Assembly: GCF_024298765.1 (NCBI RefSeq) | Contig: NZ_CP101210.1 | DNA length: 64,000 nucleotides | DNA from: Escherichia coli | GTDB taxonomy: Bacteria; Pseudomonadota; Gammaproteobacteria; Enterobacterales; Enterobacteriaceae | Direction: 5' to 3' (one strand) | In this document: positions 3,305-43,862 of the stretch, piece after piece | Numbering within the stretch: the stretch's first letter is position 1 | Layout: each line of letters opens with the position of its first letter | The notes under the pieces: model-generated | Databases searched by the model: none | Told to the model about the DNA's origin: nothing | The model's input: the letters and a program-made list of their open reading frames with translations, nothing else | Made by a program: the position numbers and the translations under genes

Positions 3305-3700
3305 TCACATTTCATAGGTAATGACATACGTCAGATCGGCAGAACTCCACAAGCCCGCATCATCGTCGCGCCGGTAGTCATAGCCACTGGCCACCATACT
3401 GGTGATCAAATCTGACAGTGCCGGGATATCGCTCATCACCGGATAAATCCGGGACTCCATCCACGCATCCAGCTCTGAATCCGGCACCTGAGCAGGCAGG
3501 AAAACTTCAATATGCAGCTCCGCCTGCCAGGTATCGCTGTCCAGCTCTTCGCCCGTGTATTCAGCGCCGGTGAGATAAACGGCAATTGCCGGAAAATCTT
3601 CCTCATCAAAAACAGCAGGGCGACCATCAAAAAACGTCGCCCCGGTGTCATGCTTCTCCAGTGCATCCAGTACGGCTGCACGGAGTTCAGTATGTTTCAT
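3305..3700 (-). CDS. U: tail terminator protein U
   Basis: 131 aa [16 protein letters not shown]..., lambda gpU. Confidence 0.9.
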
Positions 3701-4275
3701 CGCTTTATTACCATCCTCAGTTGATGCTGCAGCGCATAGCCCAGCTCTTTCGGAAGACGCTCACGCCGTATCCGCTCAATATTCTGTTTAAACGCCGTGG
3801 TCAGCGGCACCGCCATCGGGATTTTCACCACATCAATGGGGTAACGGTTTTTCCCGGCCACACGCTGCATGACATGCCAGCGGCCATTTTTCAGTTGCTG
3901 AATAAACGCGCCGGGAATACGACGGTTTCCCACCACAAGCACGCTGCCGCCACCTTTCAGGGCTGAACGCTGCCCCTTTTTACGACGCCTGCGTCGGGAC
4001 AGGACAATCCGCGCGTTACCCAGCTTTATTACGGGCAAATCCCCCCGGTTAACCTTGATTCTGGCCTGCGGATTTTTGACCGTGGCCCTTTTCAGCCAGG
4101 CCCTTTCCTTTACCAGTTTCCGGCGTACCTTTGTCTCACGGGCAACCTGTGACGCCGACTGCGATATCGCGGATGAAGCAACGCGGTTAATGGCCATTGC
4201 GGCGGCACCGGGCACCGCCGTTCTGCTGATACGGCTGAGGTTTTCAACGGCCTGCTCAAGACCTTTTATGGCCAT
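3697..4275 (-). CDS. Z: tail completion protein Z
   Basis: 192 aa MAIKGLEQAVENLSRIS..., lambda gpZ. Confidence 0.9.
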   Translation of the reverse strand: MAIKGLEQAVENLSRISRTAVPGAAAMAINRVASSAISQSASQVARETKVRRKLVKERAWLKRATVKNPQARIKVNRGDLPVIKLGNARIVLSRRRRRKKGQRSALKGGGSVLVVGNRRIPGAFIQQLKNGRWHVMQRVAGKNRYPIDVVKIPMAVPLTTAFKQNIERIRRERLPKELGYALQHQLRMVIKR

Positions 4276-5976: not shown

Positions 5977-6013
5977 TGGATGAAAACCATCACTCATTTA
6001 ACAAGAGGAATCT

Positions 6014-6919
6014 ATGCGCTCACCCAACAGAATGCATGAACGCTCAACATTTTATAAGTATATGTCGTTGAATACCGCGAAGATTGTTCTTGATTCATGC
6101 AGCCTTAGATGGAGTTCTCCGGTCCTATTTAATGACCCTTTTGATGTTCCAAGAGAAGTTATGCCTGGTATTAACGAAATTAATATTGGCAAAGCTTTAG
6201 CCCGCAAGTTAATAGCGGAGTTGATTACCCCCAGAGAAGACATACAAAATTTAAACCCTAGAATTAGAACAATGCTAAGTGATTTCCAAAAGTCATTTCC
6301 TTTAGGCATACCCGCAGGATTAATTGAAAGATTTCAAGAAATGGTAAACATTCCACCAGTTGGGATTGGCGCTCCTGCGGCAATACAAGAAATGAAAGAT
6401 ATCTGGCGAGGAATGCTTAATAACAGAAGGATTTTGTGTTTATCTGAGAGCCCTATAATCACTCCTATGTGGAATCACTATGCCGATAAATATAAAGGTA
6501 TAGTTATCGAATTTGATTGTGTAGACTTTCTGGATAGCGCTTGGTTAATAGCCAAACCTATGAAATACACAGATGAAATGCCTCTAACTCACACTGCTGA
6601 AGGGATGGCCGAGTTGCTTTTCATGCCAGACAATAAGTCAATTGAATATATCAATAATGAGATAATATTCATAAAAACAGAAGAATGGGCATATGAAAGA
6701 GAGTGGAGAATTTCAACCTACGCTAGGCCAAATAGCACTGGTCAATATAGCGACTTAAAATTTCACCCTTTTGAGTTAAAATCTGTAATACTTGGTCCTC
6801 TTTTTGATGCCAGCGAGTTCGATGAAGTCGCATCACTAGTTAAAATGTATCCAAGAGCGAAATTATTTAAAAGTTCATTTGGGAACGACAGAAAAATATC
6901 CATAGTACCACTACCTTAA
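6014..6919 (+). CDS. DUF2971-like hypothetical protein, AT-rich cargo
   Basis: 301 aa; motifs FYKY, LFNDPFD, EWAYEREWR recalled as DUF2971-like; codon usage visibly more AT-rich than neighbours; hairpin terminator follows. Confidence 0.6.
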   Translation: MRSPNRMHERSTFYKYMSLNTAKIVLDSCSLRWSSPVLFNDPFDVPREVMPGINEINIGKALARKLIAELITPREDIQNLNPRIRTMLSDFQKSFPLGIPAGLIERFQEMVNIPPVGIGAPAAIQEMKDIWRGMLNNRRILCLSESPIITPMWNHYADKYKGIVIEFDCVDFLDSAWLIAKPMKYTDEMPLTHTAEGMAELLFMPDNKSIEYINNEIIFIKTEEWAYEREWRISTYARPNSTGQYSDLKFHPFELKSVILGPLFDASEFDEVASLVKMYPRAKLFKSSFGNDRKISIVPLP

Positions 6920-18715: not shown

Positions 18716-22396
<3,681 letters not shown>

Positions 22397-23525: not shown

Positions 23526-23886
23526 ACATCCCGGTTTCTTCCACCATCGCACCGGAAAAGCGACTATGAGGGTAACCCTGCGTCTGTCAGCACAGTAAAA
23601 CCCGGTGTGCATCGTTTTTGATTATTCCCGCACACTCACGCAGAAGGAATTCCCCGTCGGGCTACGGTCATGGTTAATGCGGGAATACGGCGACGATACA
23701 GCGCAGCTAAAAGGGTAATGGACAGAAAGAGCGGTTTATTTCATTCCACAGGATTCTGAGTGCCCCCCCCTCCTCCAATAGGCTGAGCATCCACCTATAT
23801 AGTTTTAATTTTCATCAATCCATTTAACTATCGTTTAATTGTTGTCACATAGGATTCTGCCGTTTTTAACAATGCAGGATAATAAG

Positions 23887-24180
23887 ATGAAAAAAATGTT
23901 GTTTTCTGCCGCTCTGGCAATGCTTATTACAGGATGTGCTCAACAGACGTTTACTGTTGGAAACAAACCGACAGCAGTAACACCAAAGGAAACCATCACC
24001 CATCATTTCTTCGTTTCGGGAATTGGACAGGAGAAAACTGTTGATGCAGCCAAAATTTGTGGCGGCGCAGAAAATGTTGTTAAAACAGAAACCCAGCAAA
24101 CATTCGTAAATGGATTTCTCGGTTTTATTACTTTAGGCATTTATACTCCGCTGGAAGCGCGTGTGTATTGCTCACAATAA
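23887..24180 (+). CDS. bor: Bor lipoprotein (serum resistance)
   Basis: ORF 23839..24180; start MKKMLFSAALAMLITGCAQQTFTV... with lipobox; lambda Bor. Confidence 0.9.
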   Translation: MKKMLFSAALAMLITGCAQQTFTVGNKPTAVTPKETITHHFFVSGIGQEKTVDAAKICGGAENVVKTETQQTFVNGFLGFITLGIYTPLEARVYCSQ

Positions 24181-24211: not shown

Positions 24212-24673
24212 CTATCTGCACTGCTCATTAATATACTTCTGGGTTCCTTCCAGTTGTTTTTGCATAGTAATCAGCCTCTCTCTGAGGGTGAAATAATCCC
24301 GTTCAGCGGTGTCTGCCAGTCGGGGGGAGGCTGCATTATCCACGCCGGAGGCGGTGGTGGCTTCACGCACTGACTGACAGACTGCTTTGATGTGCAACCG
24401 ACGACGACCAGCGGCAACATCATCACGCAGAGCATCATTTTCAGCTTTCGCATCAGCTAACTCCTTCGTGTATTTTGCATCGAGCGCAGCAACATCACGC
24501 TGACGCATCTGCATGTCAGTAATTGCCGCGTTCGCCAGCTTCAGTTCTCTGGCATTTTTGTCGCGCTGGGCTTTGTAGGTAATGGCGTTATCACGGTAAT
24601 GATTAACAGCCCATGACAGGCCGACGATGATGCAGATAACCAGAGCGGAGATAATCGCGGTTACTCTGTTCAT
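24212..24673 (-). CDS. Rz: i-spanin Rz
   Basis: ORF 24212..24685; N-terminal TM helix then coiled coil; directly downstream of endolysin. Confidence 0.85.
24271..24453 (-). CDS. Rz1: o-spanin Rz1 lipoprotein, embedded in the +1 frame of Rz
   Basis: 60 aa with lipobox VVGCTS and proline-rich stretch [15 protein letters not shown]. Confidence 0.8.
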
Positions 24674-25167
24674 TGCTGACCCCACAAACAGATTTCACGC
24701 TCAATCTCACGACGAGTCATGAGACCTTTCCATTGCTTACCGCCAGCATATGTCCAGCGACGTAGCTGATCACATGCGCCTTTAATATCACCCTGGTTTA
24801 TTTTGCGAAGAAGCGTCGATGTTCTGAAATTGCCAGCACCCACGTTGTAGACGAACGAGTAAAGAGCGCCGCGCGTTGTTTCCGGTATATCGACTTTGAT
24901 GTACGGGTTAATTTGTCTGGCGACAGTGGCAAGGTCTTTATTCAGGAGGGCTTTGCACTCTGCTTCGGTATACGTTTTACCGGGAATGATGTCTTTTCCT
25001 GTATGCCCGTGACATACAGTCCATACACCAACTATGTCTTTGTAAGGATTATGTCTCACACCTTCCAGACCATCGTTACCACTTGGGCCAGTGATTAATA
25101 CAGATGCTATAGCAATAGCCCCGCCACCAATAGCAGCAGCAACAGCTTTTCGTAATGATGGAGGCAT
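24670..25167 (-). CDS. R: SAR endolysin (phage-21 R-type lysozyme)
   Basis: 165 aa; N-terminal Gly/Ala-rich signal-anchor-release segment then lysozyme domain; resembles DLP12 RrrD / R21. Confidence 0.85.
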
Positions 25168-25382
25168 TATCCACCTCTCGCAGCCTTGCGCTTATCTTCT
25201 TTAATCTTGAAATAAAGGTTTGTCAGGTACGTCAGCAGGCCAAATACCAGGCTACCCAGCACTCCAATTGCCGCCCACTGTGAGGGCGTGACTTTATCTA
25301 GCAGCTGTAAAAACCAGTACCCGGCACTACCTGCTGAGGTGCCATAGGCGACACCCGTTGTTAACTTATCCATGGATTTCAT
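25167..25382 (-). CDS. S: pinholin (S21-type class II holin)
   Basis: 71 aa; [20 protein letters not shown]...[35 protein letters not shown] closely parallels S21 / EssD. Confidence 0.85.
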
Positions 25383-25503
25383 AACCCCACCTCGCAGACA
25401 AAGCGGGTGTAAATTGAGGGAATACTACGAAACGTAACAGACTCGGAGTCAGTGAATAACTCAGGTATTGGGTTATCAGCTAATATCGAGACTCAAAAAA
25501 TGG

Positions 25504-25527
25504 AAAAACCCGCTCGACGGCGGGTTT
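25504..25527 (-). terminator. rho-independent terminator upstream of the lysis cassette (tR'-like)
   Basis: Minus strand aaacccgccgtcgagcgggttttt. Confidence 0.5.
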
Positions 25528-25954
25528 AAGCTGTGTGACGAAGTAACCACTCTTAACAGCATAACCAATTTTTTACGTACGTAAACCACTAAATGATATT
25601 TGCGAGAATGCTACCGAGTATTGAAAACACCACTACAAATACATAAGCAAATCTCAACAAATAACCAACAAATAATTTCCAGTGTTATTTTTAGCTGGTT
25701 TAAATTGAACCTTCAAATTATAGAGCACTTATAAATAACAGCCGTTAATATAAATTGGCTAACAGATTTATTTTTATTCAGCCAAGAGCCATGAATAGGA
25801 TTCGATAGAAAAAAGTTCAGATAAAAATAGAGATCTACTTCACAAATCAAACGAGAAACCAAAACTTACATCTTGAAATAATCACATTGATTAGATGAAT
25901 ATTTATCGCGCAGTGACATCATTTTTTAATAATAGTTCAAAAAAAGGGCTCACG

Positions 25955-27052
25955 ATGAAAAAATTAACAGTGGCAATTTCTGCTGTAGCTGCATCAGTAC
26001 TGATGGCGATGTCTGCTCAGGCAGCTGAAATTTATAATAAAGACAGTAACAAGCTGGATCTGTACGGGAAAGTTAATGCTAAGCACTACTTCTCCTCTAA
26101 TGATGCAGATGATGGTGATACTACTTATGCCCGTCTTGGCTTCAAAGGTGAAACCCAAATCAACGATCAACTGACTGGTTTCGGTCAGTGGGAATATGAA
26201 TTCAAAGGCAACCGCGCTGAATCTCAAGGTTCCTCCAAAGATAAAACCCGTCTTGCCTTCGCTGGCCTGAAATTCGGTGACTACGGCTCCATCGATTACG
26301 GCCGTAACTACGGTGTAGCATACGACATCGGTGCGTGGACTGACGTCCTGCCAGAATTCGGTGGTGACACTTGGACTCAAACCGACGTGTTCATGACTCA
26401 ACGTGCAACTGGTGTTGCAACCTATCGTAACAACGACTTCTTTGGTCTGGTTGATGGTCTGAATTTTGCTGCTCAGTACCAAGGCAAAAACGATCGTAGC
26501 GATTTCGATAACTACACTGAAGGTAACGGTGATGGCTTCGGTTTCTCTGCTACCTATGAATACGAAGGATTCGGTATCGGTGCAACTTATGCGAAATCTG
26601 ATCGTACCGACACTCAAGTTAATGCAGGGAAAGTTCTTCCTGAAGTATTTGCTTCCGGTAAAAATGCAGAAGTTTGGGCCGCAGGTCTGAAATATGACGC
26701 TAACAACATTTACCTGGCCACTACCTATTCTGAAACCCAGAATATGACTGTATTTGCTGATCACTTCGTTGCTAATAAAGCCCAAAACTTCGAAGCTGTT
26801 GCACAATATCAGTTCGATTTCGGTCTGCGTCCGTCCGTTGCTTACCTGCAATCTAAAGGTAAGGATCTTGGAGTATGGGGCGATCAGGACTTAGTCAAAT
26901 ATGTTGATGTAGGTGCAACCTATTACTTCAACAAAAATATGTCTACTTTCGTTGATTACAAAATCAACCTGCTTGACAAAAATGACTTCACTAAAGCACT
27001 CGGTGTAAGCACTGATGACATCGTTGCTGTAGGTCTGGTTTACCAGTTCTAA
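25955..27052 (+). CDS. outer-membrane porin, OmpC/NmpC/Lc family (lysogenic-conversion gene)
   Basis: ORF 25895..27052; start [23 protein letters not shown] signal peptide; [17 protein letters not shown]... and C-terminal VGLVYQF typical of general porins; sits between Q and S on the opposite strand as in DLP12/PA-2. Confidence 0.9.
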
Positions 27053-27215: not shown

Positions 27216-27241
27216 ATAATTTTTAGTAAACAATTGGCATA

Positions 27242-27640
27242 TTAATTAGAGTTATTAACAACGATATCCATCTCTAACCGGATATCTAATGCCATTAACA
27301 TCCCTTCAATTATACCCTCAGCCTTCTGTAACCTTTTCCCGATATAACCATCAGAGCAGCAATGCTTACCTGCCAGTGACATGAATGTCATACCGACTAC
27401 ATAATAATCTACTAATAAATCGTGCAAATCGCTGTTGTTCTTTTTCAGACGGGCCATGCACCCGCAAATGATCATCGCGTCATCGTCACAACATTGCGGG
27501 CGAGATTTTACTTTTGAAGTAATTAATCCCTTAAAACCGGCGGCAATGGACGACCAGGTCACATCTTCATGATTATTAGCCGCCCACGCTCCCCAACGCT
27601 CAAGAACCATCTGAATATCACGCATCAACTTACTCCACAA
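27242..27640 (-). CDS. Q: late antiterminator Q (phage-82 / DLP12 QuuD type)
   Basis: 132 aa; closely resembles DLP12 QuuD as recalled; Cys-rich putative zinc site; upstream of the lysis genes. Confidence 0.8.
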
Positions 27641-39360: not shown

Positions 39361-39905
39361 GCGAAATTAACTCTCAGGCACTGCGTGAGGCGGCAGTAGC
39401 AATTGAAACAGTAGCAACACCTCAAAAATTGCTGGCATTTCGTATGAAAGTCACACCTCAGGTTGTGCTGGCTCTACTGGATGAACGAGATGCATTAAAT
39501 GAACGCCTAGCCGAACTGGAGGCTGATTTAGCAGGGCTGGCCGAAGACCACCAGAAAGCGACTGAGTCAATTAAGCAGGCTGATGCAGCTGTTAAGTTGG
39601 CACACGAGAAGTTTTCGGCGCTGGCGGCGGAGAATGAGCTGGCTCGTAAAGCAGTTCAGGAATTCTGCGATGTTGTTGGCGACAGCACCGAGGTTATCTG
39701 CGAGGAGATTGGGAGAGATGGTGTTCTGGTTATTTTGGAGGCCATGAAGGCAACAGGAAATATGCCAGCCACCGATGCTTTCCTGGCTGAAGTACGGGCG
39801 CAGGGGGTGGAGATGATGCGCGAACATCCATCAATCAAACTTTGCTCTTTGACGCACATATGTGATGAGTTAGCCGCCCAGCTTCGCAAAGGAGGCAACC
39901 AGTGA
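39357..39905 (+). CDS. Ea22-like coiled-coil protein
   Basis: 182 aa, GTG start, N-terminus MSEINSQALREAA... as in Ea22-family proteins. Confidence 0.55.
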   Translation: MSEINSQALREAAVAIETVATPQKLLAFRMKVTPQVVLALLDERDALNERLAELEADLAGLAEDHQKATESIKQADAAVKLAHEKFSALAAENELARKAVQEFCDVVGDSTEVICEEIGRDGVLVILEAMKATGNMPATDAFLAEVRAQGVEMMREHPSIKLCSLTHICDELAAQLRKGGNQ

Positions 39906-40035
39906 CTGGACATGCAGCAATCCTCGACATGTGCTGTGGCAGTCGCATGTTCTGGTTAGATAAGAATGACGAACGGGCGAGATAAGCGATCGGTTAAGTG
40001 CTATAGTAATGCGCTTTTGTATTTATGGAGTGAAT

Positions 40036-40734
40036 ATGAAAAATATCCTACTGGCATCATTGTTAGTGGCATCGCCGGGTGCATTTGCAGCCAGCTTTGA
40101 CTGCCAAAAGGCTTCGACAGCAATCGAACATAAAATCTGCGATAACGAACGTCTGTCAAAATTAGACGAACAGCTTAGCTCTGCCTATTCTAGTGCCCTC
40201 AAAGGAAACCCAGAGAACGCAGACACCCTAAAAATGGTTCAACGTCAGTGGGTAAATATGCGTGGAAAACTCACTGATAATAAGGCTCTGGAGCTGGCTT
40301 ATCTTATCCAAATTAATGGCCTCAAAGGTTTGGGGAGTTCAGTCAGCGTAACAGCGGCCAATGACATACCCACGTCGGCGCAGAAACATTCTAAAGAGCA
40401 GGAAGATACAAGTAAGGCAGAAGCTAAGTCGGTCAAGAACGGCAATAAGCTAACCTTAGAGTCATTCCGAGCTAAATATGTAGAAGTAGATGGTGAGTAT
40501 TACAGCACGACATCCATTCCTAGAGGCAGTTCGTTCTTGTTCACTTGCGCTAGTCGTATTGCTGATGACCAAGTGAATATTTGGAAGAAACAGGCAGCCA
40601 AAGAGGGCAAAATCGACCTATTCTTTGAGGTTGAGAATCACTTACACACGGCTATGTTGAACGCCAATTTTCAGAAGTTGAATTCAGACCCTGCCAAAAG
40701 AGGTATTTGTAATCTGATTAACGCAGTGCCGTAA
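40036..40734 (+). CDS. secreted DUF1311 (LprI-like) domain protein, moron
   Basis: ORF 40009..40734; start MKNILLASLLVASPGAFA signal peptide; FDCQKASTAIEHKICDNERLSKLDEQLSSAY...QRQWVNMR fits the DUF1311 pattern; AT-rich. Confidence 0.6.
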   Translation: MKNILLASLLVASPGAFAASFDCQKASTAIEHKICDNERLSKLDEQLSSAYSSALKGNPENADTLKMVQRQWVNMRGKLTDNKALELAYLIQINGLKGLGSSVSVTAANDIPTSAQKHSKEQEDTSKAEAKSVKNGNKLTLESFRAKYVEVDGEYYSTTSIPRGSSFLFTCASRIADDQVNIWKKQAAKEGKIDLFFEVENHLHTAMLNANFQKLNSDPAKRGICNLINAVP

Positions 40735-40970
40735 GTAAATTTAGGGCCACAGTTGTGGCCTTAAATATTTTTTTCAGCCTTTTCTTATTTGTAATAAGCA
40801 GTACTTGGTAGTGCTTATAAAACAGAATAAAAAATATATGACTTTGGCGATTACCCAGTAAAGATATTCGAAATAAATGTAAATATCGACAATGAATAAC
40901 TATCCTCGCACTCGCGGGGATTTCTTTTATCTGAACTCGCTACGGCGAGTTTTTTTTATGGAGATGATAA

Positions 40971-41138
40971 ATGCACTTCCGAGTCACAGGTGAATGGAAT
41001 GGAGAACCATTCAACAGAGTTATCGAAGCCGAGAACATCAGCGACTGCTATGACCACTGGATGCTGTGGGCGCAGATAGCACATGCAGACGTAACCAATA
41101 TTCGAATTGAAGAACTGAAAGAACACCAAGCCGCCTGA
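40971..41138 (+). CDS. small hypothetical protein (55 aa) upstream of xis
   Basis: Hand-translated MHFRVTGEWNGEPFNRVIEAENISDCYDHWMLWAQIAHADVTNIRIEELKEHQAA; followed by hairpin gccgcc-tgatg-gcggttttttc; below the ORF-track size cutoff. Confidence 0.5.
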   Translation: MHFRVTGEWNGEPFNRVIEAENISDCYDHWMLWAQIAHADVTNIRIEELKEHQAA

Positions 41139-41177
41139 TGGCGGTTTTTTCTTGCGTGTAATTGCGGAGACTTTGCG

Positions 41178-41396
41178 ATGTACTTGACACTTCAGGAGTG
41201 GAACGCACGCCAGCGACGCCCAAGAAGCCTTGAAACAGTTCGTCGATGGGTACGCGAGTGCAGGATATTCCCTCCTCCGGTTAAGGATGGAAGAGAGTAT
41301 CTGTTCCACGAATCAGCGGTAAAGGTTGACTTAAATCGACCAGTAACAGGTAGCCTTTTGAAGAGGATCAGAAATGGGAAGAAGGCGAAGTCATGA
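41178..41396 (+). CDS. xis: excisionase Xis
   Basis: 72 aa MYLTLQEWNARQRRPRSLETVRRWVRECRIFPPPVKDGREYLFHESAVKVDLNRP..., lambda Xis. Confidence 0.95.
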   Translation: MYLTLQEWNARQRRPRSLETVRRWVRECRIFPPPVKDGREYLFHESAVKVDLNRPVTGSLLKRIRNGKKAKS

Positions 41397-42444
41397 GCGC
41401 CGGGATTTACCCCCTAACCTTTATATAAGAAACAATGGATATTACTGCTACAGGGACCCAAGGACGGGTAAAGAGTTTGGATTAGGCCGAGACAGGCGAA
41501 TCGCAATCACTGAAGCTATACAGGCCAACATTGAGTTATTTTCAGGACACAAACACAAGCCTCTGACAGCGAGAATCAACAGTGATAATTCCGTTACGTT
41601 ACATTCATGGCTTGATCGCTACGAAAAAATCCTGGCCAGCAGAGGAATCAAGCAGAAGACACTCATAAATTACATGAGCAAAATTAAAGCAATAAGGAGG
41701 GGTCTGCCTGATGCTCCACTTGAAGACATCACCACAAAAGAAATTGCGGCAATGCTCAATGGATACATAGACGAGGGCAAGGCGGCATCAGCCAAGTTAA
41801 TCAGATCAACACTGAGCGATGCATTCCGAGAGGCTATAGCTGAAGGCCATATAACAACAAACCCGGTCGCAGCCACTCGCGCTGCAAAATCAGAGGTAAG
41901 GAGATCAAGACTTACGGCTGACGAATACCTGAAAATTTATCAAGCAGCAGAATCATCACCATGTTGGCTTAGACTTGCAATGGAACTGGCTGTTGTTACC
42001 GGGCAGCGAGTTGGTGATTTATGCGAAATGAAGTGGTCTGATATCGTAGATGGATATCTTTATGTCGAGCAAAGCAAAACAGGCGTAAAAATTGCCATCC
42101 CAACAACATTGCATGTTGATGCTCTCGGGATATCAATGAAGGAAACACTTGATAAATGCAAAAAGATTCTTGGCGGAGAAACCATAATTGCATCTACTCG
42201 TCGTGAACCGCTTTCATCCGGCACAGTATCAAGGTATTTTATGCGCGCACGAAAAGCATCAGGTCTTTCCTTCGAAGGGGATCCGCCTACCTTTCACGAG
42301 TTGCGCAGTTTGTCTGCAAGACTCTATGAGAAGCAGATAAGCGATAAGTTTGCTCAACATCTTCTCGGGCATAAGTCGGACACCATGGCATCACAGTATC
42401 GTGATGACAGAGGCAGGGAGTGGGACAAAATTGAAATCAAATAA
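41374..42444 (+). CDS. int: integrase Int (lambda)
   Basis: 356 aa MGRRRSHERRDLPPNLYIRNNGYYCYRDPRTGKEFGLGRDRRIAITEAIQANIELF..., lambda Int. Confidence 0.95.
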   Translation: MGRRRSHERRDLPPNLYIRNNGYYCYRDPRTGKEFGLGRDRRIAITEAIQANIELFSGHKHKPLTARINSDNSVTLHSWLDRYEKILASRGIKQKTLINYMSKIKAIRRGLPDAPLEDITTKEIAAMLNGYIDEGKAASAKLIRSTLSDAFREAIAEGHITTNPVAATRAAKSEVRRSRLTADEYLKIYQAAESSPCWLRLAMELAVVTGQRVGDLCEMKWSDIVDGYLYVEQSKTGVKIAIPTTLHVDALGISMKETLDKCKKILGGETIIASTRREPLSSGTVSRYFMRARKASGLSFEGDPPTFHELRSLSARLYEKQISDKFAQHLLGHKSDTMASQYRDDRGREWDKIEIK

Positions 42445-42449
42445 TGATT

Positions 42450-42532
42450 TTATTTTGACTGATAGTGACCTGTTCGTTGCAACAAATTGATAAGCAATGC
42501 TTTTTTATAATGCCAACTTAGTATAAAAAAGC
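42450..42532. other. prophage attachment site (int-proximal arm plus 15-bp core; core at about 42518..42532)
   Basis: caaataatgattttattttgactgatagtgacctgttcgttgcaacaaattgataagcaatgcttttttataatgccaacttagtataaaaaagc is the reverse complement of the lambda attP arm and core GCTTTTTTATACTAA; host DNA follows. Confidence 0.85.
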
Positions 42533-42578
42533 AGGCTTCAACGGATTCATTTTTCTATTTCATAGCCCGGAGCAACCT

Positions 42579-43862
42579 GTGAACACATTTTCAGTTTCCC
42601 GTCTGGCGCTGGCATTGGCTTTTGGCGTGACGCTGACCGCCTGTAGCTCAACACCGCCCGATCAACGTCCTTCTGATCAAACCGCGCCTGGTACCTCTTC
42701 TCGCCCGATTCTGTCGGCAAAAGAAGCGCAGAATTTCGATGCTCAACACTATTTTGCATCCCTGACACCAGGTGCGGCAGCGTGGAATCCTTCCCCGATT
42801 ACCCTGCCTGCACAACCTGACTTTGTTGTCGGCCCGGCGGGTACTCAAGGTGTAACGCATACCACGATTCAGGCGGCGGTAGATGCGGCAATTATCAAGC
42901 GTACCAACAAGCGCCAGTATATTGCCGTGATGCCTGGTGAGTATCAGGGAACGGTATATGTCCCTGCCGCTCCGGGTGGAATTACTCTGTACGGTACAGG
43001 TGAAAAACCGATTGATGTGAAGATTGGGCTTTCCCTTGATGGGGGCATGAGCCCTGCCGACTGGCGTCACGACGTCAACCCGCGCGGCAAATATATGCCA
43101 GGTAAACCAGCGTGGTATATGTACGATAGCTGCCAGAGCAAACGCAGCGACAGTATCGGCGTTCTCTGCTCTGCGGTCTTCTGGTCACAAAACAATGGAC
43201 TGCAACTGCAAAACCTGACCATCGAAAACACGCTGGGCGATAGCGTAGATGCGGGTAACCATCCGGCGGTGGCACTGCGTACTGATGGTGACCAGGTACA
43301 GATTAACAACGTTAACATTCTCGGTCGTCAGAACACCTTCTTTGTCACCAACAGCGGTGTGCAGAACCGTCTGGAAACGAATCGTCAGCCGCGTACGCTG
43401 GTGACCAACAGCTACATTGAAGGGGATGTGGATATCGTTTCTGGTCGCGGCGCAGTGGTGTTCGATAATACCGAATTCCGCGTGGTGAACTCACGTACTC
43501 AGCAAGAAGCGTATGTGTTTGCACCGGCTACGCTGTCCAACATTTACTACGGTTTCCTCGCCGTAAACAGTCGTTTCAATGCTTCCGGTGATGGCGTGGC
43601 GCAACTGGGCCGCTCGCTGGATGTTGATGCCAATACCAACGGTCAGGTGGTGATCCGTGATAGCGCCATCAACGAAGGTTTTAACACAGCCAAACCGTGG
43701 GCTGATGCGGTGATTTCCAATCGTCCATTCGCGGGTAACACCGGCAGCGTTGATGATAACGACGAAGTACAGCGCAATCTGAATGACACTAACTACAACC
43801 GCATGTGGGAATACAATAACCGCGGCGTGGGTAGCAAAGTGGTTGCAGAGGCGAAGAAGTAG
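42579..43862 (+). CDS. ybhC: putative outer-membrane lipoprotein, pectinesterase-like
   Basis: 427 aa, GTG start, MNTFSVSRLALALAFGVTLTACSS lipoprotein signal; matches K-12 YbhC. Confidence 0.9.
   Translation: MNTFSVSRLALALAFGVTLTACSSTPPDQRPSDQTAPGTSSRPILSAKEAQNFDAQHYFASLTPGAAAWNPSPITLPAQPDFVVGPAGTQGVTHTTIQAAVDAAIIKRTNKRQYIAVMPGEYQGTVYVPAAPGGITLYGTGEKPIDVKIGLSLDGGMSPADWRHDVNPRGKYMPGKPAWYMYDSCQSKRSDSIGVLCSAVFWSQNNGLQLQNLTIENTLGDSVDAGNHPAVALRTDGDQVQINNVNILGRQNTFFVTNSGVQNRLETNRQPRTLVTNSYIEGDVDIVSGRGAVVFDNTEFRVVNSRTQQEAYVFAPATLSNIYYGFLAVNSRFNASGDGVAQLGRSLDVDANTNGQVVIRDSAINEGFNTAKPWADAVISNRPFAGNTGSVDDNDEVQRNLNDTNYNRMWEYNNRGVGSKVVAEAKK

Follow-up and report, generated by a model that had tools for sequence, protein, structure and literature searches.

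We analysed a 64,000-nt window of Escherichia coli DNA (contig NZ_CP101210.1, assembly GCF_024298765.1) and concentrated on one prophage gene, at 40036..40734 on the plus strand, whose product is a predicted periplasmic protein made up of an N-terminal LprI/DUF1311 module, a flexible linker and a conserved C-terminal domain (C-domain) that matched no known family. The open reading frame (ORF) is genuine, encodes 232 aa plus a stop codon and is nested within a longer ORF (40009..40734, +). The alternative start at 40009, giving 241 aa, was rejected: it lacks a Shine-Dalgarno (SD) sequence, a candidate -10 element lies directly upstream of its ATG, and RefSeq lists the 232-aa form. The ATG at 40036 follows a GGAG SD sequence that is unchanged in Salmonella phage SSU5, and a transcript from the candidate -10 element would begin past the ATG at 40009, consistent with the 40036 start. 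A 1.1-kb region including the gene is 100% identical to Escherichia phage ev099, and the product is identical to YP_009909933.1 (ev099 gp35) and to WP_000789830.1, which is carried by 106 of 5426 complete E. coli genomes (~2%). Both RefSeq annotations read "lysozyme inhibitor LprI family protein". The protein belongs to PHROG 4675 (full-length match, E 3.5e-94), a catalogued family to which no function is assigned. The DUF1311 domain call made in a first-pass annotation of the window, from the sequence alone, is correct, yet it was already in the NCBI automated annotation and is therefore not new.

The gene is flanked on its 5' side by an Ead/Ea22-like gene and on its 3' side, in order, by a 55-aa ORF, xis, int and the host gene ybhC, neighbours that place it in a lambdoid prophage at the lambda attachment site. 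The PF13935 match of the upstream gene and the neighbour annotation bear out the earlier statement that an Ea22-like gene lies upstream and xis-int downstream. The same annotation had assigned the gene to a "b2-equivalent region", which did not hold: it is part of the pL delayed-early operon (N, cIII, kil, gam, bet, exo and onward to xis and int, all on one strand), between the ea22-like gene and xis, in the position of ea8.5 on the lambda map. The b2 region of lambda is on the other side of att. The description of the gene as AT-rich is accurate only in a mild sense, its GC content being 44.2% vs 49.6% for the window; the downstream spacer has 33% GC.

Consistent with export, the protein begins with MKNILLASLLVASPGAFA followed by ASFDC, in which a heuristic reading finds a basic n-region (MK-N), a hydrophobic core (ILLASLLVA) and a c-region (SPGAFA, followed by AS) whose small residues at -3 and -1 form an A-x-A site for signal peptidase I (SPase I). 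Cleavage between AFA and AS is supported by the relatives, since in dozens of them the conserved domain begins at the same ASFDC, right after the signal peptide. The heuristic reading found no lipobox in the N-terminus, and the product is predicted to be a Sec-exported, soluble, non-lipoprotein periplasmic protein. The signal peptide proposed at first pass is thus upheld by its three regions, by the A-x-A site and by the conserved ASFDC start.

The mature protein opens with a domain that Pfam PF07007 (LprI/DUF1311) matches over residues 23-78 at 25.2 bits, above the gathering cut-off of 22 (E 2.2e-5), covering profile positions 1-70 of 106. Residues C23, C35, D44, Y51, Q69, W72 and R76 are conserved in this domain; Q69 and W72 belong to a QRQW motif (residues 69-72), and among relatives Q69 and C35 are invariant and W72 is invariant or nearly so. 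The cysteine pattern and QRxW motif from which the domain had originally been recognised are therefore confirmed by C23/C35, by QRQW and by the Pfam check. AlphaFold2 (AF2) predicts helices at residues 29-36, 38-57, 59-76 and 82-104, with a predicted local distance difference test score (pLDDT) of about 90-96, and a fold search gave no significant superposition of the protein on a solved DUF1311 structure. Among 1.84 billion representative proteins, searched exhaustively, there were 2783 relatives at E<=1e-3, nearly all of which match the first 60-100 mature residues only. Local extraction from the relatives yielded a complete module of ~80 residues (ASFDCxKAxTxxExxIC..LSxLDxxL..Y..QRxW..RNxCxDxxCLxxAYxxRIxxL), which starts within the first 45 residues, directly behind the signal peptide, in 180 of 247 occurrences; the relatives aligned end to end with the module over residues 19-98. 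PF07007 was matched by 67 of 74 and 120 of 134 module relatives (best E 4e-29), and family membership is therefore sound, with the "partial" hit reflecting a short subfamily. Judged from these alignments, what looks like a partial Pfam match is in fact complete: a short variant, with two cysteines, of a module that is very widespread directly after signal peptides.

Typical members of the family have four cysteines, and the second pair has been lost from the protein in the window, which keeps only C23 and C35. L79 and A84 occupy the cysteine positions of RNxCxDxxC, and every two-domain phage relative lacks this second pair too. Bacterial proteins join the module to a wide variety of C-terminal regions, most of them without annotation and a few containing ankyrin, SH3, TPR or trypsin domains, and the DUF1311-type module behaves like a generic periplasmic N-terminal unit with variable partner domains. 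Tandem arrays of two to five copies of the ~80-aa module also occur in many bacterial proteins (for example P0059, 502 aa, with five copies).

Behind the module, a disordered linker that varies in length and sequence among relatives leads to the C-domain, in which G153, C171, N209 and C225 are invariant and a C171-C225 disulfide is probable. No Pfam family (chance-level matches only), PDB entry or known fold matched the C-domain, as the first-pass annotation had anticipated in calling it uncharacterised. PDB sequence searches with the full protein and with a C-domain profile gave nothing meaningful, and from an index of 5.8 billion proteins the profile retrieved nothing but family members. A structure search of the viral BFVD returned only uncharacterised members of the same family, all from T4-like phages. 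NCBIfam gave nothing but sub-threshold matches (CpoB, A1S_1983, mevalonate kinase), no PADLOC defence-system model matched, and an Rfam scan of 39800-41500 found nothing above chance (rsmX, E 0.69, 19 bits vs 56).

Selection was examined by the Nei-Gojobori method as the ratio of nonsynonymous to synonymous substitution rates (dN/dS) between the copy in the window and three phage-plasmid copies (L002, L013, L014). The ratio was 0.14-0.20 for the whole gene, 0.13-0.22 for the N-terminal domain and 0.05-0.08 for the C-domain; in the linker it ranged from about 0.4 to 3.4 on small counts and is read as roughly neutral. By this measure the gene is functional, and purifying selection acts strongly on both domains, most of all on the C-domain. 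Between the lambdoid and phage-plasmid copies dS itself was uneven (0.34-0.53 in the N-terminal domain, 1.1-1.7 in the C-domain) with similar dN, which may reflect a mosaic produced by intragenic recombination or different codon constraints.

Table 1. Positions of the gene, its parts and the associated features within the window.
Feature	Position	Strand	Remarks
Mobile cassette (promoter-like element, SD, gene, terminator)	39967..40774	+	82-83% identity to SSU5-like phage-plasmids
Candidate extended -10 element TGcTATAGT	39999..40007	+	Read from sequence; weak -35 GAGATA 39979-39984
SD sequence GGAG	40027..40030	+	5 nt before ATG; identical in SSU5
Coding sequence, 232 aa + stop	40036..40734	+	WP_000789830.1 / YP_009909933.1; PHROG 4675; dN/dS 0.14-0.20
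Signal peptide, residues 1-18 (MKNILLASLLVASPGAFA), predicted SPase I cleavage between AFA and AS	40036..40089	+	Heuristic; relatives' module begins at A19
N-terminal domain, residues 19-105, short two-Cys LprI/DUF1311 variant	40090..40350	+	Pfam; AF2; relatives
Disordered Ser/Thr/Ala/Lys/Glu-rich linker, residues 106-135	40351..40440	+	pLDDT <50
C-domain, residues 136-232	40441..40731	+	Short helix, beta-hairpin 148-157 (VDGEYYST), three helices
Intrinsic terminator	40739..40774	+	12-bp stem 40739-40766 and T-run 40768-40774; RNA fold; conserved in SSU5
Phage-21-type lysis cassette	24212-25382	-	Holin, endolysin, Rz, Rz1-like
Holin, 71 aa	25167-25382	-	Lysis cassette
GH24 endolysin, 165 aa	24670-25167	-	Gly/Ala-rich signal-arrest-release (SAR) signal-anchor-like N-terminus; PF00959 E 4e-47
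Rz	24212-24685		Lysis cassette; embedded Rz1-like lipoprotein ORF 24271-24453
Bor-like lipoprotein ORF	23839-24180	+	Adjoins lysis cassette

Comparison with other carriers indicated that the gene travels with a short flanking block. All 13 of the SSU5-like loci compared (13/13) align to the window only from 39967 or 39979 to 40774. Among lambdoid loci the upstream homology breaks vary (39885 in 11 loci, 39765 in 6 loci, and also 39869, 39508, 39005 and others) and the downstream breaks fall at 40858-41158. The shared block consists of about 60 nt of upstream sequence with the -10-like element, the SD sequence, the gene and the terminator. In SSU5 the -10-like element is kept as TGaTATAGT; a consensus promoter scan, which needs 4/6 in the -35 hexamer, calls no promoter upstream of the gene. 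The terminator folds as RNA at -17.6 kcal/mol (z -5.85; 0/200 shuffles were as stable), and its hairpin is kept in SSU5, with homology stopping just past it. The gene region was present in only 2 of 285 matching phage records, the remainder matching only a downstream tL4-like segment. These features fit a compact, autonomous, moron-type cassette equipped with a terminator and a candidate promoter of its own. The gene had been called a moron at first pass, a reading that agrees with the terminator, the presence/absence polymorphism, the reproducible boundaries and the lower GC content; its promoter stays a candidate, with a conserved -10-like element on one side and a scan that calls none on the other.

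Three terminator-like hairpins stand in series ahead of xis-int in the spacer that follows the gene (40735-40970, 236 nt, 33% GC), the first being the gene's own. The other two, at 40902-40921 and 40933-40952, are a tandem pair with a joint folding energy of -24 kcal/mol (z -6.0); the segment that holds them is shared at about 90% identity with many lambdoid phages and bears the annotation "tL4 terminator" in HK022. Between the cassette and xis lies the 55-aa ORF (40971-41138, +), annotated only "Phage protein/hypothetical" and with no Pfam match, and a terminator-like hairpin (41128-41147) overlaps its 3' end.

Outside the window the gene is found in three kinds of phage. Lambdoid prophages carry copies 96-100% identical on IMG/VR contigs of <=50 kb, and SSU5-like phage-plasmids of about 110 kb carry copies about 78-84% identical, including SSU5 gp101. 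The gene is present on 127 PLSDB plasmids, mostly about 110 kb and non-mobilizable, of Enterobacter, E. coli and Citrobacter, and on many further contigs of 100-147 kb in Salmonella, Citrobacter and Klebsiella. The two-domain protein also occurs in virulent T4-like phages, where Aes508 gp024 and Marfa gp026 have the complete architecture with every invariant residue; a tblastn search started from a distant two-domain relative matched 159 phage records (Aeromonas 70, Escherichia 49, Klebsiella 24), and the C-domain profile search added Aeromonas phage ZPAH1 orf288. Aes508, Marfa and one metagenomic T4-like contig carry the gene in the same slot among early replication genes, between the genes for primase gp61 and gp56. 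The phage proteins are mutually 25-37% identical, with hosts from Aeromonas to Enterobacteriaceae. Outside phages no two-domain relative was seen, though several distant ones (such as P0055, P0065 and P0168) are on contigs of <2 kb that are too short to judge, and among the 1.84 billion representatives the C-domain turned up in phage-type contexts only. The two-domain architecture thus appears to define a phage-specific family. In Klebsiella phage Marfa the gene shares the gp41-gp61-gp56 early region with gp032, a homologue of T4 Spackle, at a distance of ~2.5 kb (3644-3925 and 6001-6759), and the Marfa protein has an additional charged C-terminal tail of ~25 residues.

The name under which the protein is catalogued refers to lysozyme, and we considered what that name rests on. 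LprI of Mycobacterium tuberculosis (Rv1541c) inhibits lysozyme, and it combines DUF1311 with an MliC domain that is sufficient for lysozyme resistance (PMC7933661). For the LprI domain itself there is "yet no experimental evidence" of a role in lysozyme resistance (PMC7933661). The periplasmic DUF1311 protein ScwA (SL1344_0490), which is soluble and disulfide-bearing, does not protect Salmonella from lysozyme; it controls the levels of MltD and other peptidoglycan (PG) hydrolases, and its overproduction lyses cells (PMC7933661). Among DUF1311 proteins linked to type VI secretion systems (T6SS), Etsi4 rescues the periplasmic toxicity of the cell-wall effector Etse4 when co-expressed (PMC12981562), and LprI-domain genes adjoin lysozyme-like T6SS effectors in Pantoea and in WHIX-effector neighbourhoods (PMC9796082, PMC12135965). 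The protein in the window contains no MliC (PF09864), PliC, Ivy, PliG or PliI domain, PF07007 being the only Pfam match. Because DUF1311 is without demonstrated inhibition and the protein without MliC or any other known inhibitor domain, "lysozyme inhibitor" is here a family label and not an inferred activity; the lysozyme-inhibitor reading in the first-pass annotation is therefore not sustained, all the more as ScwA is non-protective. The LprI name, in implying lysozyme protection, is probably misleading.

Comparison with the studied proteins shows how much is shared and how much is not. With the LprI/DUF1311 family (PF07007) the protein shares the Cys-x11-Cys, LD..L..Y and QRxW..R motifs, a predicted helical fold and an envelope location. 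Like M. tuberculosis LprI it joins an N-terminal DUF1311 domain to a different C-terminal domain, but it is not a lipoprotein, has two of the four cysteines, and its C-domain is not MliC. The T6SS immunity DUF1311 proteins such as Etsi4 are likewise signal-peptide-bearing and periplasmic and neutralise, or are positioned against, cell-wall effectors; they differ in lying within T6SS clusters beside their effectors, whereas the gene described here is phage-borne, has no adjacent effector and encodes an extra conserved C-domain. ScwA resembles it as a soluble, periplasmic, disulfide-bonded DUF1311 protein, horizontally acquired in enterobacteria and linked to PG hydrolases. By description, ScwA is set apart by a C-terminal DUF1311 domain with four conserved cysteines and by a chromosomal gene that is not phage-borne. 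The experimentally studied DUF1311 proteins found in the literature (LprI, ScwA and Etsi4) have in common that they work in the envelope, either on cell-wall enzymes or against them.

By analogy with these proteins, we tentatively propose that the product neutralises, by binding it in the periplasm, a cell-wall-acting protein that comes from outside, in superinfection exclusion or immunity, a possibility that we hold at well below even chances. Since the gene lies inside the pL delayed-early operon, the protein would be expected to appear early upon infection or induction, and possibly also in the lysogen. Removal of the signal peptide would release the helical DUF1311 module, the flexible linker of ~30 residues and the conserved C-domain of ~95 residues into the periplasm, where the protein could bind an incoming wall-acting protein stoichiometrically. 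The C-domain would give target specificity and the DUF1311 module would be a general-purpose scaffold or partner-binding unit in the periplasm, comparable to its pairing with MliC in LprI; fusion of the N-terminal module to many different C-terminal regions is consistent with such a division between carrier and specificity domain. The most likely target would be a PG-degrading tail or injection enzyme of a superinfecting phage, which we favour because strictly virulent phages keep the protein at an early position and because the studied DUF1311 proteins deal with wall-acting enzymes. The outcome would be superinfection exclusion or resistance to lysis from without. The same mode of action could alternatively be aimed at a T6SS or bacteriocin muramidase. 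A function from which a virulent phage profits during a single infection cycle is easier to reconcile with exclusion than with benefits confined to a lysogen, and the T4 exclusion genes imm and sp are early genes. At first pass the protein had been suggested to protect the lysogen envelope or to act in host interaction; its early-gene conservation in virulent T4-like phages points instead to a role in the infection cycle, and not only in the lysogen or the animal host.

In this proposal the protein would be a functional analogue, not a homologue, of T4 Spackle (gp61.3), a small, signal-peptide-bearing, disulfide-bonded, helical periplasmic inhibitor of the tail lysozyme gp5 (PMC7677548). Both are phage-encoded, have a signal peptide, are mainly helical and disulfide-bonded (by prediction for the protein in the window) and occupy early-gene positions in T4-type genomes. 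The protein described here differs in being ~3x larger, in having two domains and a linker, and in occurring also in temperate phages. Homology to Spackle was rejected, no sequence or fold similarity having been detected, and so was the idea that the protein replaces Spackle, as Marfa encodes both. Spackle homologues are found mainly in enterobacterial T4-like phages, with no Aeromonas phage among the ten most frequent organism names, and on these records the distributions of Spackle and the two-domain protein are only partly complementary. More doubtful than a periplasmic binder in general is the further suggestion that the two-domain protein defines a new class of phage periplasmic exclusion or immunity factor, in virulent and temperate phages, that by means of a new inhibitor fold unrelated to Spackle, Ivy and MliC blocks an incoming PG hydrolase or some other step of DNA entry in the periplasm.

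As a DUF1311 protein the product is ordinary and already catalogued, and the modest lead lies in the phage-specific two-domain architecture and the novel, constrained C-domain. What could matter is that one constrained periplasmic protein is common to T4-like virulent phages, lambdoid prophages and clinically common SSU5-type phage-plasmids. Should it be an exclusion or immunity factor, effects on the host range of phage therapy and on competition among Enterobacteriaceae would follow, and the C-domain would be a new inhibitor fold.

A rival reading is that of an orphan immunity protein that would shield the lysogen or plasmid host from PG-targeting T6SS or bacteriocin effectors, the muramidase-type toxins of competitors. 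That DUF1311/LprI proteins serve as cognate or orphan immunity proteins adjoining lysozyme-like or cell-wall T6SS effectors, together with the Etsi4 rescue, argues for it, as do a terminator and candidate promoter suited to expression in the lysogen and the frequency of the gene on stably kept SSU5-like phage-plasmids of Enterobacter, Citrobacter, Salmonella and E. coli. We nevertheless regard it as unlikely, since protection of the host from T6SS would be of little benefit to the strictly virulent T4-like phages that carry the protein at an early position, an effector gene adjoins the gene in none of the contexts seen, and among the 1.84 billion representatives the C-domain turned up only in phage-type contexts.

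Unlikely too, in our estimate, is a modulator in the manner of ScwA: by binding or stabilising a lytic transglycosylase or endopeptidase of the host, the protein would remodel the wall for phage development, DNA entry or lysis. The precedent is ScwA itself, as a soluble periplasmic DUF1311 protein that sets hydrolase levels, and a conserved host target would account for purifying selection on both domains and for use by virulent and temperate phages. Against it, DUF1311 is C-terminal in ScwA (residues 185-271 of 275 aa) and N-terminal in the phage protein, where it has only two module cysteines, a comparison made by description only; the range of hosts from Aeromonas to Enterobacteriaceae and the low mutual identity of the phage proteins are also at odds with it.

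True inhibition of an animal (c-, g- or i-type) lysozyme, protecting the lysogen in an animal host, is improbable. The Pfam and PGAP names, lysozyme inhibition by M. tuberculosis LprI and the origin of many carrier strains from animals and patients would agree with it. Besides the lack of a known inhibitor domain, of any match for the C-domain and of experimental evidence for inhibition by DUF1311, for which ScwA gave none (PMC7933661), the known Gram-negative inhibitors are beta-rich (PMC7677548) whereas this protein is mainly helical, and it occurs in virulent T4-like phages that infect Aeromonas and Klebsiella.

Regulation of the phage's own lysis, as a periplasmic buffer that keeps an exported endolysin inactive until holin triggering or in another lysis-timing role, would suit the phage-21-type holin and the GH24 endolysin of this prophage, whose SAR-like N-terminus suggests likely export before lysis, but is the least probable of the readings weighed here, because SSU5, with a copy ~80% identical, has an unrelated endolysin without a GH24 match, because the gene lies in early, not late, transcription units in all contexts, and because T4-type endolysins are cytoplasmic until holin action.

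Other accessory genes were noted in the phages that carry the protein. The ev099 record annotates an OmpD/NmpC-like porin between Q and the lysis genes, Lom, an AraC-family regulator and transposase fragments near att (42428-43510, 19058-19657, 25210-26726). In SSU5 an annotated Cor superinfection-exclusion protein (27230-27463) adjoins the lysis genes, and SSU5 therefore invests in envelope-level exclusion functions.

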